Positions 21,001 to 27,000 of a stretch of 64,000 bases of DNA are shown in pieces. A program made the position numbers. The stretch's first letter is position 1; the number at the start of each line of letters is the position of its first letter. The DNA lies in assembly GCA_963667035.1 (NCBI GenBank), contig OY762964.1, positions 1,120,001 to 1,184,000 on the forward strand. The letters are read 5' to 3'. Source of the stretch: Candidatus Cloacimonadales bacterium (GTDB taxonomy: Bacteria > Cloacimonadota > Cloacimonadia > Cloacimonadales > JAFGVF01).

Positions 21001-24000
21001 TCTTTGGTCATCACGTTTTAAATTCTCAATAGATTCTCCGTGATGAGCAGTTATGATAGGTACTATACTGCTTCCGTCTTTAAAATTGCATTTTATCGAT
21101 TTATCAACACAGTCATCAACAAATTGAGCTGAATTTGCAATTATATGTGCTGTTTTTTCTTTTATTCCCGCAGCTCTGGCAATTGTGTAGGTTCCATAAT
21201 AATGGAAATCTATCTGCATTGTTCCTCCAATGAACGTTACAAATCCTGTAGGATAAACGATTCTACTATTACTGATATCTAACATAAGCCCATAGAATGA
21301 TAATCTAGGATTTAATAATCTAAATTTAAATTGATAAATTCAAAGTGTCGTAAATAGTCAAGAATTAAATATTGTAACGGCAAATCTGATTGATAAATCA
21401 CTTTAATTAATTGATGTTATATGCTTAATCGCATTGTAAGGTTTACACACTTTTCTTTTTACTCCCTTACTCCTGTATAAAACCATTTATCTATTTATGC
21501 ATTATCACACCACATTGTTTAAACGACTTAGTAAAACACAATTTTCCCACTGTGATCCCACTGTGAAGGTACTGCTAACCCGGTGTCTCAGTGAGTGGAT
21601 AGTGCGTTCACAGTGGAATCACAGTGCGAACACAGTGCGTTGTTAGAGTATGTGTACTGTCCTGGATAGGTTACCCTAAAAAGGAACAGGAGAAATGATG
21701 AGTAAAGAGACAACGAAAAGGTACCAACGTAGTTATAGTGTTGTATTTAAAATGAAAGTAGTGGACGAAATTGAGAACGGATGTTTAAGTCAGGGAGAAG
21801 CTCAACGGCTTTATCACATATCTAGTATATCCACAATCCAAGGGTGGATTAAGAAGTATGGAATGAATGCAAACTCAGATACAAAGGATTAGGGCACATC
21901 TGTAACTTGTATGGATACACACAGGACAGGGCTTTAATATGCATAAGAAGATACTTGAGCGAGATGCTACGAGAAACCGTGAGATAGTGTATATCGTCCT
22001 GAATAAAGTTGGCATATTGAGAAATGACAGAAAAAAGTATTCTTAAATTTTGAACATCATAATGCTTTTCTTCCTATAATATAGTTATTCCGAATCTATC
22101 ACTTATAATCTATTTAAATGGGGCTCTCTCTTTGAGATGTAAACAACAAGTAAAGATTATTACTAAAATCTACATTCAATTATGTAAAGAAAGTGTTTGA
22201 CAAGTATCAAAGGAATTAGGATTCTATGTAAAATCTTCCATAAAAAGGAGTGAATTATGAAGAAAGGTTTATTATTTATTACACTTTTACTTCTTGCTCT
22301 ATCCGCTTTAGCTGTGCAAATCAATGTTGTTGCTGAAGTATTCACGGAATCTTGGTGAGGATACTGTCCAAGAGCAAGAGCAGGTCTGCTTTCGTTATAT
22401 GAAAATCAACCCAATGTCGTGCCACTTATATGGCAAGGAGACAGTTCGAATGTATCACCTAATTATTCAGGACGTAGAGGTTTAATCGGTTCGCTTTCAA
22501 GTGGTATACCACAAACAGCTTTCCAAGGTGTAGAACTTGAAGTTGGAGCCTTACCAACAGCTTATCAAAGCCAATTTTTACCAATTTACAATGATTTGAT
22601 TGATGATCCAAGTCCTGTACAATTATCCGGGGTATTTGTTCCAACAAGTACAGGATATAATCTTATTGCAGATGTTCAGCTTGAATCAAATCTTGATTAT
22701 TCAAACAACAAATTAGTATATATTATTACAAGACATCAGACAGATGAATATTTCTGTAGTGTCGTTGCATACGGTGATATGGATTTACCAATAAGTACAG
22801 CAGGACAATCAGGAAGTTATAACATGGAGCTTGCTGTAAATCAAGCTTGGGATCCTGAGACATTACAAGGTTACATCTTAGTTCAATCATTTGATACAAC
22901 TTACCCTTACATTTATCAAGCTGCTGAATGTGGCACATCACCTGTAACTACCACAAGTATGAATTTTGGAGATTCATACATCGGTGGAAATTTCGAGAAG
23001 AAGTTTAAAGTTATAAATATCTCAGATAATAATGCTAACTTTGTATTATCATTGATTGGTGACGGCTATACACTCACTGACCCTACTACTCTTAGTTTAA
23101 ATGCAGGTGAGCAGTATGAATATACTGTAACATTTACACCGACAGCAGAAATGCAATATCCTGGTGTAATAATGGTATCTTCAGATATCAGTGGTTTTGA
23201 GTATTCCGAGATAGCTCTTGATGGAACCGGTTTTGTAGATCAAGCTCCTAGTGCCGAATTAGTAACATTAACCGGAATGGCAATGCAAAATGATTTCCTT
23301 ACAGCAAGCTATACTTTCCTTGATATGGATGGTGACATGGAAGGAGATACAGAAGTCAAATGGTATAAATCTCAAGATGGAGATAATTGGGAAGAATTCA
23401 ATCATAATTCTAATGACCCAATGATAATGCAAATTGGAGCAGAGTATATTGGTTACATGATTAAGTTTACAGTATTACCGATAGACGAACACTCAATGCC
23501 CGGTACACTTGTGGAATCTAATACTTCAAGCGTAATTATTCCTTTGCAAGCTCCTTGGGGACTGGACTTTACATCTGAAAATGGAAATGATATCGTCCTT
23601 ACTTGGGAGAATCCATTAACAGACCAACGTGCCTTGTTCGGGTACAGAGTATTTAGAAATGGTGTTTCTCATGCAACCTTACCTAACAGTAATACTTTAA
23701 CTTATACAGATGTTGCTGTTGAAGACGGAACATGGGAATACTATGTAAGAGCTATTTACAATAATCCTCTTACAACATCAGAGCCGTCTAATACGATTAC
23801 TGTTGTTATTGAAGACGGTCTTGTTGGTAATAATGAGAATGTTGCAACTTTAAACAATACTCTTTCCGTTTCTCCTAATCCTTTCTCAGAATCGTCTAAT
23901 CTCTCTTTTTCACTTAAGAGTGCTGATGATGTTAGAGTGGATATTTACAATGTAAGAGGTCAGCTTGTTAACACTCTTGTTAATAGTAATCTTTCACAGG

Positions 24001-27000
24001 GTGAACATACTATCCAATGGAATGGTACTGATGCAAGAAACAACAAAGTCTCAAATGGTATTTATTTCTATAAAATAACTGCTTCAGATTATAATAGAAG
24101 TATGAAAACTATCTACATGAAATAGATAGCAATAGATTATATGAAAGCCTCATCAAATAGATGAGGCTTTTTTAGTAGGAATAAATAAAATGCTCCTACT
24201 GATATTAGGTTGACATTTATTGAAAGAGATAACTATTATCACATAAGATGAAAACTAAATGGAGATAGATTATGAAGTTATTTTGTAGGCGTTATTTACC
24301 TTTAATACTGCTGATTATGATTGTTGCCTTAATGTTCACTTTAGGAGCAAAGAAAAGTGGAGATAAAATTCCCCTTTCTGATGTGATTATATCTTCCAGT
24401 TCTGATATTGTGCCTTCTGATAGTGAGATATTCGTCTATTTAAACGATAAATATTCAAACAAAATCAATAATATAAATCCGGATAAGTACTGGTCGATAA
24501 GTCCAAAGCTTAAAGGTAGATTATATAAATCTGGAAGAAATAAGATTGTTTTCCGACCCGAGAACGGATTTAAACCGGGAGAGAACTATACATTTAAACT
24601 TCAATTGGATAAGATTCTTAACGAGAATAGAATTGATGAGTTTTTTCTTGATATTAGAATTCCACTAAATGAGATAATCAGATTCAATTATTATACATCA
24701 TTTGACGGAAATACAGGGCAAACCTTACTCAAAGGGAATATATCCGTTAACGGAAGAGTTGAGAGAGAACAGTTAAATGCCGGGGTTAGCTTAAAGAGTA
24801 AATCAGGTCTGGAATACAATATTGTCTGGAATGGCTATAGCGGTCGCTATTGGGATTTTGAGATAGGTCCTTTGGATACAAAAGATATTACTAATGAGAT
24901 GCAATTGGAGTTTGATAAAGACGCCTTATCTTTAAGAGAAAGCTCATCTCAAAGAATTGAAGTGAAAGAAGCAAAAGAGTTTAATCTTACTTCTATTTAT
25001 TGGGAGAAACTAAGACTTCAAAACCTGATGGTCCTATCTTTTGACTGTGGATTAAAGAAGTTTCAAGATTTAAACGGATTAATATCACTTGAACCTAAAT
25101 GCAACTTTACAAGTACTATAAGAGACGACAGAATTTATCTAAAAGGTGACTTTGTACCGGGTGTAACTTATACTGTAAAGCTTGCATCTTCAATTAGTAA
25201 CCACTATGATGTGAAAATGAAAGATGTCGAGAACAGAAAGACTACAGCTCCCGATTTAAATGAATTGCATGAGTTTAGTGAGCAAGGTAGTTTTCTATCG
25301 TCATTAAGCGATAATAAAGTTAGCGTAAACCTTATTAATATTGATAAATTACATCTTGAAGTTAAGAAGATTCATAAAAATAATCTCTCGTATTTCTTAG
25401 ATTACAATGAGCTCTCAACAAATGGCAATTACTATGGATATGACAATATCACGTATTATGGTGAGAGTATTATATCAAAAGATATTGATTTGGATATTCC
25501 TAGAAACAGTCTTGTTAGAGTTGACTTGGATTTATCTGACTTATCAAAAGAAAACGACGGTAGCATATTCGTTATTGAAATTAAAAATCCTAACGAATGG
25601 CAAAATAAAAGAAAGATAGTTATTAAATCAGATTTGGCAGTAACAATGTTTAAAAGCGAACTTGAAACTGTAATCTCAGTGCGTGAAATTGAGTCAGGCT
25701 TTCCGATAGCAAACGCTAAAGTAGATATTTTGTCCGAACAACATCAGCTATTAAAATCCGCTTTCACTAATGAAGATGGATTAATAACAGGTCTGGAAAT
25801 CAAAGAAGACCCAAAATATATTATTGCTCGTAATTTTGAGAAAATGGGATTGCTCCTACCATACAATATGATGTGGAATACTTCTACATTTGATGTCGGA
25901 GGAACATCCATAGCCAAAGGTTTACTTATTCACTCTTATCTTGACCGTTCTATCTACAGACCGGGAGAGACAATAACCCTTGCAGCGATAGTCAGAGATA
26001 GGAATGGAGATTACCCGGATGAGCTTCCTTTAAACATAAGCGTATATAATGCTGAGAACAAGCTAATCGGTGAAGAAGTGATTAAAGATAGCAAAAAGGG
26101 ATTCTTCTTTTACCGGTATAAAACATCCGAATCCGATTTAACTGGTAGTTGGAGATTTAAAATAGTTGCTGGAGCTACAGAAGAGAATATCTACTTCGAT
26201 TTACAAACAGTGATTGCCAATAGAATAACTGTTAATGTTAATACTGATAAAGACATTTATTCAAATGATGATGATAAGATTGATATCAATGTTAAATCGG
26301 ATTATTTATTCGGGAAACCTGCTTCAGATTTGGAAGGAATGATTAAGCTAAAGATAAGCTCTTATATAAAGTCGTTTAAGACTTGGAGCGATTATACTTT
26401 TTACGATAAAGAGAGGAAGTTTACTAAGTCTGAACAAACACTTAAGATTGAAAAGACTGATGCAGAAGGATATCTTAAAGTTAACTGGAATATCCCAGAT
26501 TATCCGGCTCTGCCATCTGCTTTGAACTTAATAATAACAGGTGAAGTAACTGAAAGTAATCGTCCTGTATCTACAAACAAAATAGTTAGTTATGAAAAAT
26601 ATAATCATTATGTAGGTATTAAGAGTGATAACTATTATCTACAACAAGGTAAGAAGCAGAAATATGATATTATCTATGTTGATAGAGAAGGTAATCCTGT
26701 AAGCAAGGAAAAGCTTACGGTTAAGGTTTATTATCAGGAGTACAATTGGTGGTATAATTACAATGATTCCAATATATCTTTTAAAGAAGATTACAATACC
26801 AGTTTAGTTACCGAAAAGACCATTACTTCAAAGAGTAAGCCGGTTACTTTTAGTTTTACTCCTGAACAAAAGGGTAAGTATCTTATTGAAGTTACTTCAG
26901 CCAATGGTCACTCTGCATCATTAGAAAGACAAACCAGTTGGTGGCAGAATGAATCAGGTAGTATGAGAAGTGAAGGGCTTATTACACTAAAATCTGATAA

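Follow-up and report, generated by a model that had tools for sequence, protein, structure and literature searches.

The described systems closest to the gene reported here are a surface protein of Porphyromonas gingivalis and a group of predicted selenoproteins. HBP35, the 35-kDa hemin-binding protein of P. gingivalis (PDB 5y1a), consists of a two-part head, made of a thioredoxin fold and a beta-sandwich, and of a C-terminal type IX secretion system (T9SS) domain. According to the available part of the report describing it, its thioredoxin activity in vitro requires both cysteines, it reaches the cell surface, and it binds hemin, growth under hemin scarcity depending on it (PMC2907840). Its secretion is Por-dependent, as stated in the accessible text of a second report (PMC3120885). 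The other system, GOS_C, was predicted by Zhang and Gladyshev in 2008. In the portion of their report at hand, GOS_C is a thioredoxin-fold UxxC selenoprotein with 74 Sec-containing sequences, a SECIS-like hairpin and the conserved UxxC both entering the prediction (PMC2398784).

We analysed a window of 64,000 nucleotides from Candidatus Cloacimonadales bacterium (GCA_963667035.1, contig OY762964.1, positions 1,120,001-1,184,000, forward strand); gene coordinates are window positions (Table 1). Translation of the gene gives one frame of 622 codons with a sole internal TGA at codon 34, surrounded by the residues ...VVAEVFTESW-U-GYCPRARAGLL. A paralog on the minus strand (contig positions 726758-729688) encodes 976 residues, with T-U-G-F-C-P at codon 35. 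The genome-wide survey's note had described both as single genes with one in-frame UGA after the signal peptide, and the translations bear this out. The predicted signal peptide has an n-region with KK, then a hydrophobic core, and A-L-A preceding Q21; its residues 2-17 are helical in the model and it is conserved in the same frame across 12 orthologs. Calling of open reading frames with table 11 yields two ORFs, 22257-22358 (33 aa) and 22419-24125 (568 aa, GTG start), and public records of orthologs hold 566-579 aa under the name 'T9SS type A sorting domain-containing protein'. The public annotation cuts the selenoprotein gene short. We consider it highly probable that the gene encodes one exported protein of 622 residues with selenocysteine at UGA 34, an HBP35-like head and a T9SS tail, acting as a surface oxidoreductase. 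The terminator-like hairpin that follows the gene was absent from the output of the consensus scan.

Table 1. Features of the probable selenoprotein gene and its surroundings (window positions)
Feature	Position	Strand	Evidence
Whole gene, 622 residues	22257..24125	+	Single frame with in-frame TGA
Shine-Dalgarno-like GGAG, 6 nt 5′ of ATG	22247..22250	+	Sequence inspection
Start codon and predicted signal peptide MKKGLLFITLLLLALSALAV, aa 1-20	22257..22316	+	Sequence features, model, orthologs
Thioredoxin-fold domain, aa 21-118	22317..22610	+	AF2, profile against PDB sequences, alignment
In-frame TGA, read as selenocysteine (U34)	22356..22358	+	Aligned with TGC/TGT of relatives
SECIS-like hairpin	22373..22396	+	Folding, fdhF decamer, frozen codons, pair conservation
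Beta-sandwich completing HBP35-like head, aa 119-226	22611..22934	+	Model strands at 121-224; Foldseek against 5y1a
Ig-like domain (ASH / choice-of-anchor D type), aa 227-325	22935..23231	+	Sub-cut-off profile matches
Ig-like domain (AIR9 A9 / ZirU-like), aa 332-419	23250..23513	+	Sub-cut-off profile matches
Fibronectin type III-like region, aa 432-520	23550..23816	+	Weak matches only
T9SS type A C-terminal sorting domain, aa 538-622, and TAG stop (24123-24125)	23868..24125	+	TIGR04183, PF18962, FlgD_ig
Terminator-like hairpin GCCTCATC-AAATA-GATGAGGC, then TTTTTT	24147..24173	+	Sequence inspection

In the AF2 model (mean pLDDT 91.3), U34-G-Y-C37-P38 precedes a helix spanning residues 37-50, and the thioredoxin-fold domain contains an invariant G-I-P85 loop. 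The top Foldseek match is 5y1a (E 5.9e-10, TMq 0.71, 257 aligned columns). A profile of the head family, run against PDB sequences, matched thioredoxin 1fo5 (E 9.9e-6) and HBP35 (5y1a, E 1.5e-4), where it aligns with HBP35's own stretch VVLEVFTAEWCGYCP. Because the best structural match is the Porphyromonas protein, the model supports the HBP35-type head, thioredoxin fold plus beta-sandwich, that the survey had proposed. The active-site stretch VVLEVFTAEWCGYCP is almost identical to VVAEVFTESWUGYCP of the window protein, the W-C-G-Y-C-P motif reading W-U-G-Y-C-P here; HBP35 has Cys at the position of the putative Sec. The T9SS C-terminal domain is common to both. However, the two proteins share only about 16% identity in the structural alignment, the window protein carries two or three additional Ig/fn3-like domains that separate its head from its tail, and it comes from an uncultured anaerobe in a different phylum. 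Only for HBP35 are thioredoxin activity, hemin binding and surface location known.

The window protein would act as a thiol-disulfide oxidoreductase in which U34 would make the attack on a disulfide of the substrate or on some other oxidised form of sulfur or selenium, and C37 would resolve the resulting selenenyl-sulfide. No redox partner gene adjoins the window gene. Gene structure, fold and the Sec/Cys alignment are results of the analysis; selenium incorporation, export, substrate and electron donor are inferences. Selenocysteine in redox sites is nearly always catalytic, and no member of the family departs from the U/CxxC or from the cis-Pro-type G-I-P loop. These points make it unlikely that the protein, though a real selenoprotein, serves mainly in hemin or metal capture or in adhesion through its Ig body, with a UxxC that is structural or metal-binding, even if a body of Ig/fn3-like domains is typical for surface adhesins. 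In the available part of its report, HBP35 argues both ways, for capture by binding hemin and being required for growth when hemin is scarce, and against it by its own thioredoxin activity (PMC2907840).

Selenocysteine is the best reading of UGA codon 34, and almost certainly the right one. Among 30 fetched loci, the TGA column (24 loci) is aligned with TGC or TGT (6 loci); the survey had already reported such a Sec/Cys alignment. Similarly, 124 unique segments comprise 105 TGA and 19 Cys forms. Family columns E27, F29, T30, C/U34, C37, P38 and P85 are invariant. The TGA itself is invariant among the 12 orthologs (50-77% identity), and the 33 codons 5′ to it show protein-level, in-frame conservation in these orthologs and in many paralogs. 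When the first 231 aa were searched against 232 Cloacimonadota genomes, 194 genomes matched at E <= 1e-5, against the earlier 169, presumably obtained at another threshold, and the earlier split of the best 100 matches listed (70 with one TGA, 30 with none) was recovered. Among 150 matches listed, 92 have one TGA and 58 none, with 203 further matches beyond those listed.

As the survey had also stated, the genome has the Sec machinery. A tRNA-SeC lies at 1779700-1779794, and selA, selB and selD each exceed their family cut-offs, selD with one TGA (...AAG-U-GAK). A UGA aligned with Cys codons, and genomic tRNA-Sec, SelA, SelB and SelD, features expected of a bacterial selenoprotein gene, are present. 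Across the phylum, of 60 genomes that have a TGA-bearing match among those listed, 57 contain selA, as compared to 107 of 232 overall; it was not found in the other three (G128, G152, G140), whose assemblies consist of 330-500 contigs each. In family f3, selA is found in 0 of 98 genomes, and none of its four matches among those listed carries a TGA.

The SECIS-like hairpin lies 18 nt 3′ to the UGA. Its core stem pairs 22377-22382 with 22387-22392 around the loop GGTC (22383-22386), placing GGUC at offsets 28-31. Folding gave 6 bp, including one G-U pair, for the window gene and 7 bp for the paralog, as previously quoted. The likeness to the E. coli fdhF SECIS mentioned by the survey is real, since the decamer GCAGGTCTGC, at 22380-22389 (offset 25), also occurs behind the fdhF TGA of E. 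coli K-12, there at offset 19. The two elements thus share an identical 10-nt apex, GCAGGUCUGC, with its GGUC loop, though that of fdhF is 6 nt nearer to the UGA. The fdhF SECIS has a bulged U; neither this bulge nor the lower stem of fdhF is evident in the window hairpin, whose conserved stem is only 5 bp.

Conservation points to selection on this RNA. In the 12 orthologs, 76 columns combine an invariant residue with a 4- or 6-fold codon choice, and codon usage is uniform in only three: R41 (AGA), G43 (GGT) and L44 (CTG), all within the hairpin. Five core pairs are intact in 13 of 13 sequences, one of these pairs being A-U in eight and G-C in five. The hairpin of the paralog exceeds synonymous recodings in stability (p 0.006-0.011), and so do those of Sec forms with other downstream residues (mean z -1.3; 5 of 22 at p <= 0.05). 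At -6.9 kcal/mol the window hairpin is weak, and its advantage over synonymous recodings drawn with genome codon usage is not significant (0.09-0.21 of the null equal or exceed it in stability). For the AR-x-G-L subfamily, mean z amounts to no more than -0.39 and 2 of 37 reach p <= 0.05; therefore, the amino-acid sequence accounts for much of the pairing. Cys-form relatives retain a similar hairpin, which therefore fails on its own to separate Sec from Cys forms. In the selD of the same genome, too, the loop (offset 21-23) is closer to the UGA than that of the window hairpin. Overall, we find a G-bearing apical stem-loop under RNA-level selection, with the caveats that its energy is not significant and that an Rfam scan gave no SECIS match at E <= 10.

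Read-through by other means, with the UGA read as near-cognate Trp or Cys or under a reassigned code to give an ordinary thiol or non-redox protein, might draw on this weak hairpin and its insignificant energy, and on one public ortholog gene call (P0004) that shows W at this position. However, that W fits a caller table with TGA as Trp and is not evidence about the organism. We hold such decoding to be very improbable, in view of the full Sec machinery with a selD that itself uses UGA, the tracking of selA by TGA forms in 57 of 60 genomes among the matches listed, the frozen synonymous sites of the hairpin codons, and the location of the codon at the nucleophilic Cys of CxxC, a classic Sec/Cys exchange site. 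Least credible of all is a true stop separating a 33-aa leader peptide gene from a 568-aa T9SS protein starting at GTG 22419: table-11 calling does yield this split and the orthologs' records do show T9SS-named proteins of 566-579 aa, but the 568-aa product would have no signal peptide, and its thioredoxin fold, which is modelled with confidence, would be deprived of its first strand, of the active site and of part of helix 1. Across 12 orthologs and many paralogs, the 33 codons upstream stay in frame and conserved as amino acids, and the stop aligns with Cys of relatives and is invariant in the orthologs. In the selenoprotein that we favour, SelB and tRNA-Sec would decode UGA codon 34 as selenocysteine, aided by the downstream hairpin.

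The mature protein would comprise, in order, the HBP35-like head with W-U-G-Y-C-P, two or three Ig/fn3-like spacers and the type A T9SS domain. The first spacer matches Pfam ASH (3.4e-5), Cep192_D4 (9.6e-5) and NCBIfam choice_anch_D (8e-6), and the second Pfam IG_AIR9 (4.8e-5) and NCBIfam ZirU_fam (4.6e-5), all below cut-off; the third gives weak matches to Pfam fn3 (0.0058) and DUF7383 (0.0022). At the C-terminus, profile matches support a T9SS type A sorting domain: TIGR04183 scores 34.9 bits (cut-off 23), PF18962 (Por_Secre_tail) 35.2 bits (cut-off 27, E 1.6e-8) and FlgD_ig 49.1 bits (cut-off 27, E 5.7e-13), the two E-values reproducing exactly those first recorded. In the genome, PorU (615.5 bits) and SprA (472.7 bits) exceed their cut-offs, and a PorV-like match reaches 138.7 bits, under the cut-off of 250. 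The protein would thus be carried by the Sec translocon into the periplasm and by the T9SS across the outer membrane, to end on the cell surface or be released.

A wider reading, to which we give slightly less than an even chance, is that this gene belongs to a whole clade of working HBP35-like UxxC selenoenzymes, located on the cell surface or extracellular, which anaerobes from several phyla (Cloacimonadota, Marinisomatota, Zixibacteria, KSB1 and some Bacteroidales) would export through the T9SS and which would carry out selenium chemistry outside the cell. Their hosts would be amino-acid fermenters, and the enzymes would perform selenium-based disulfide or chalcogen chemistry, for instance breaking open proteins rich in disulfides, on which the hosts' many T9SS peptidases could then act, and some route across the outer membrane would hold the enzymes in the reduced state. 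If so, they would form the first T9SS cargo class with selenocysteine; within the collection of literature searched, no paper joining T9SS and selenocysteine was found.

The survey had proposed a new selenoprotein family. This part of its claim does not stand, as the head is a distant relative of GOS_C, a selenoprotein group known since 2008. GOS_C, as far as the available part of its report defines it, is NCBIfam NF045500, 'Omp28-related selenoprotein': on this model (cut-off 200), marine contigs in which the GOS_C motif occurs reach 472-596 bits. Pairwise alignment of the window head with such a contig puts U on U, with 24% identity over 227 residues (E 2e-7). The Sec column, the extent of the head and the thioredoxin-like fold with UxxC are common to both. 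In contrast, GOS_C-type ORFs are mostly of 350-400 aa (49 of 58 complete ORFs), GOS_C proteins measuring about 376-400 aa and the NF045500 architecture about 377 aa, against 622 aa here. They have a calcium-binding-repeat or dockerin-like tail, weakly matching an MtsC thrombospondin-type-3 model, and no T9SS domain, where the window protein has Ig-like domains and a T9SS domain; their motif is D/E-F-T-G-L-N-U-P-Y-C-P, as compared to E-V-F-T-x-x-W-U-G-Y-C-P here. The window protein is a variant and not a member of NF045500, because it scores 37.2 bits against the curated cut-off of 200 and has a different tail; that cut-off was reached by none of the 232 phylum genomes and by none of 10 other genomes tried. 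By sequence comparison, the gene represents a branch of the GOS_C / Omp28-related selenoprotein superfamily that has diverged and carries a T9SS tail. Omp28 proteins, lipoproteins according to the NCBIfam name alone, have Cys, whereas the window protein is a predicted T9SS cargo with Sec, and it has no match to PF11551 (Omp28) at E <= 1. Ten of 25 relatives of its head match PF11551 weakly (best E 1.5e-5), and GOS_C members score 42-59 bits, below cut-off, on NF033782 (Omp28 family outer membrane lipoprotein); all therefore belong to one broad superfamily of envelope thioredoxin-like proteins.

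The window gene forms a single reading frame of which the only internal stop is a TGA; a standard ORF caller breaks this frame into two pieces, a stub of 33 aa and an ORF of 568 aa. The stop is found in the context VVAEVFTESW-U-GYCPRARAGLL and this motif is preceded by a signal peptide of typical form, MKKGLLFITLLLLALSALAV. A GGAG sequence is located 6 nt 5′ of the ATG codon, and the terminal TAG is followed by a GC-rich hairpin and a T-run. The same layout is seen in a paralog with the motif T-U-G-F-C-P. The genome also has a third relative (locus L003). It is a Cys form, TATWCPNCP, the thioredoxin-like domain of which is found ~256 codons into the open frame and is therefore internal. 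Genes neighbouring the window gene encode DUF6765, formate-THF ligase, methylmalonyl-CoA mutase, an alpha-2-macroglobulin and PBP1C, none of them with a functional link to it. The last two are a usual bacterial gene pair.

Positions of the window gene, its elements, its relatives and nearby genes
Feature	Sequence	Positions	Strand	Remark
Window gene	window	22257-24125	+	622 codons
In-frame TGA	window	22356-22358	+	codon 34
GTG start of the 568-aa ORF	window	22419	+	
Hairpin core	window	22377-22392	+	
Alpha-2-macroglobulin and PBP1C genes	window	24272-31969	+	bacterial alpha-2-macroglobulin (1797 aa), PBP1C-type penicillin-binding protein directly after
M14 carboxypeptidase	window	10691-13534	-	CarboxypepD_reg domain and T9SS sorting tail
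Paralog	contig OY762964.1	726758-729688	-	976 aa
Third relative (L003)	G000:C1 (source genome)	~2749761-2750204	+	Cys form
Tandem array	G172:C1	31576-35897		
Tandem array	G144:C30	15548-24432		
Tandem array	G163:C47	24343-26278		

The source genome encodes tRNA-SeC and has adjacent selB and selA genes. Its selD itself has U, in AAG-U-GAK. The first 231 residues of the window protein were used as query in a six-frame search of 232 Cloacimonadota genomes (E <= 1e-5). Matches to the head, that is the N-terminal thioredoxin fold and beta-sandwich, were obtained in 194 genomes. Among the best 150 matches, 92 had exactly one TGA and 58 had none, with 203 further matches beyond those; the first 100 reproduced the 70 one-TGA and 30 no-TGA matches counted in the genome-wide survey's note. 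When 30 loci were fetched, the TGA (24 loci) shared its column with TGC/TGT (6 loci), inside VVGEVFTxxW[U/C]xYCPxAR. The selA gene was found in 107 of the 232 genomes, and in 57 of the 60 that have a TGA-bearing match among the matches listed; this link is to be taken as an association rather than a statistical test, as related genomes are non-independent. The three TGA-bearing genomes without a selA match at E <= 1e-20 (G128, G152 and G140) are fragmented assemblies of 330-500 contigs each, one of them with 8% contamination. In f3, the largest family of the phylum, selA was found in none of the 98 genomes. The 11 f3 regions fetched (L206-L216) contained Cys forms only, belonging to a sister subfamily characterised by GTGTWCxYCPGAAMG and the stretch ...VVVEVATGTWCGYCPGAAMG..., and no defined hairpin was seen downstream in these 11 regions. 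Overall, the window gene is almost certainly a real selenoprotein gene that has been mis-annotated, and we infer that selenium is incorporated at U34. Three sequencing runs, all of one study, contain this DNA, and no RNA run was among those listed.

A hairpin, AGAGCA-GGTC-TGCTTT, is located 18 nt past the UGA of the window gene; that of the paralog is TCGAGCA-GGTC-TGCTCGA. The decamer GCAGGTCTGC is identical between the window hairpin and the apex of the element that follows the fdhF TGA of E. coli K-12 (NC_000913.3), and starts at offset 19 in fdhF as compared to offset 25 in the window gene. Codon choice was compared in 12 orthologs (50-77% identical) at the 138 columns having an invariant residue and more than one possible codon. 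Only seven columns showed a single codon throughout: the TGA, three columns of 2-fold codons in other parts of the gene, R41 (AGA), G43 (GGT) and L44 (CTG). A 4- or 6-fold choice exists at 76 of these columns, and apart from R41, G43 and L44, all three inside the hairpin, every one of them varies in codon. Five core pairs are kept in 13 sequences out of 13; at one pair, 8 of them have A-U and 5 have G-C, coupled to Ala/Thr and Leu/Phe changes. Codon choice and pairing both speak for selection on the RNA.

The window hairpin (-6.9 kcal/mol) showed no significant gain over synonymous recodings (0.09-0.21), which counts against such selection, and the paralog hairpin was significantly better than its recodings (0.006-0.011). 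The mean z of the energy against recodings was -0.39 across the subfamily and -1.3 in Sec forms with other downstream residues. A search of window positions 22100-22700 against Rfam (E <= 10) returned no SECIS family, the matches being chance ones to eukaryotic RNAs. Applied to the subfamily's 76 Sec sequences together, RNAalifold found no consensus because the hairpin register varies by clade; the loop starts at offset 22-24 in most clades and at 28 in that of the window gene. We take the window-gene hairpin to be a genuine SECIS, if a short one, partly encoded by the conserved A-R-x-G-L residues.

A hairpin of 7-8 bp is also kept, at the Sec-form site, in Cys forms of the A-R-x-G/A-L subfamily from selA-positive Cloacimonadota genomes (L032, L036, L187, L190-L195, L197, L198 and L202). 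Its loop is GGTCT or GGTCG, with a compensating change distinguishing one version from the other. The presence of this hairpin in Cys forms is a point against the SECIS reading. It may be a fossil SECIS that outlived a Sec-to-Cys switch, or a pairing imposed by the residues.

An AlphaFold2 model of residues 1-235, made with 25 relatives in the alignment, had a pLDDT of 91.3 and displayed a thioredoxin fold followed by a beta-sandwich. Helix 37-50 has U34 and C37 at its start, and strand 86-89 is preceded by the invariant G-I-P85. The best Foldseek match was HBP35 of Porphyromonas gingivalis (5y1a, E 5.9e-10, TMq 0.71), followed by 2axo. The family profile matched archaeal thioredoxin 1fo5 (9.9e-6) and HBP35 VVLEVFTAEWCGYCP (1.5e-4). 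Weak Ig/fn3-like matches lie between the head and the C-terminal tail, which is a T9SS type A sorting domain above curated cut-offs. The source genome has PorU (615.5 bits), SprA (472.7 bits) and a PorV-like protein below the family cut-off, and over 40 additional frames in it show a match to the tail region of the PorU model. The M14 carboxypeptidase encoded in the window is one of these tail-bearing frames. According to PMC2907840, HBP35 has thioredoxin activity needing both cysteines, binds hemin and reaches the surface. The window protein is an HBP35-type thioredoxin with a T9SS tail and with Sec in place of Cys, and is presumably exported. A surface thioredoxin raises the question of the electron source; for the window protein, both substrate and electron donor are inferred.

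To situate the window protein among predicted selenoproteins, it was compared with GOS_C and with NF045500, the NCBIfam model 'Omp28-related selenoprotein'. It scored 37.2 bits on NF045500 against a cut-off of 200, which was reached in none of the 232 phylum genomes and in none of 10 other TGA-bearing genomes. Zhang and Gladyshev 2008 (PMC2398784) describe GOS_C as a UxxC selenoprotein of Trx-like fold, represented by 74 Sec and 312 Cys sequences, its motif being shown in supplementary file 4. A pattern of this motif retrieved 107 stretches from marine metagenomes, and 49 of the 58 complete ORFs were 350-399 aa long. All four GOS_C-type ORFs scanned scored 472-596 bits on NF045500, which therefore corresponds to GOS_C. 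In one such ORF, 227 residues align with the window head at 24% identity (E 2e-7), Sec on Sec. GOS_C has a Ca-binding-repeat or dockerin-like tail, whereas the window protein has the T9SS domain. The window protein is a divergent branch of the GOS_C/Omp28-related selenoprotein superfamily. The new selenoprotein family proposed in the survey's note was not borne out, given this alignment and a superfamily predicted as selenoprotein since 2008. HBP35 was also already known as a Cys version on a T9SS tail, and the advance is therefore incremental. What is new is a T9SS-tailed variant of a known superfamily with Sec. The searchable literature contained no paper connecting T9SS with selenocysteine, and nothing relevant on Omp28-linked selenoproteins, Cloacimonadota selenoproteins or HBP35 with Sec. 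To our knowledge, very few studies have dealt with extracellular selenocysteine chemistry in strict anaerobes.

Public ortholog records are cut short at the UGA, with loss of signal peptide and active site. In one public ortholog, P0004 (621 aa), W is printed at the Sec position (ESWWGYCP), most likely by a gene caller using a TGA=Trp table. A model for the window-gene branch would mend many gene calls. TGA-bearing members occur in at least 60 of the 232 Cloacimonadota genomes and also in several other phyla. Beyond the phylum, one genome per species was scanned with a degenerate DNA pattern, giving at least 125 stretches; at least 15 of 125 were chance matches without an HMM match. Among the matches listed, Sec heads confirmed by an HMM of the alignment of the window head and its relatives came from records labelled Neomarinimicrobiota, Zixibacteria, KSB1, Bacteroidales, Dehalogenimonas and others, some of these labels being those of metagenome bins that may be wrong.

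Sec-form genes of the family are often in tandem, with two to five copies per contig (arrays in the table, and L038 and L062/L063/L076). In marine metagenomes, some contigs likewise carry two adjacent GOS_C/NF045500 genes at a distance of ~1.3-1.4 kb (L218/L219, L222/L223, L275/L276 and L286/L287). The pattern scan also caught a distinct short UxxC protein, ...VHLE[IV]FTTPTUPYCPQAV..., with ~150 open codons upstream and ~73 downstream (L058, L082, L090, L107, L135 and L171; records labelled Chloroflexia or Actinomycetes). This is probably a separate glutaredoxin/thioredoxin-like selenoprotein.
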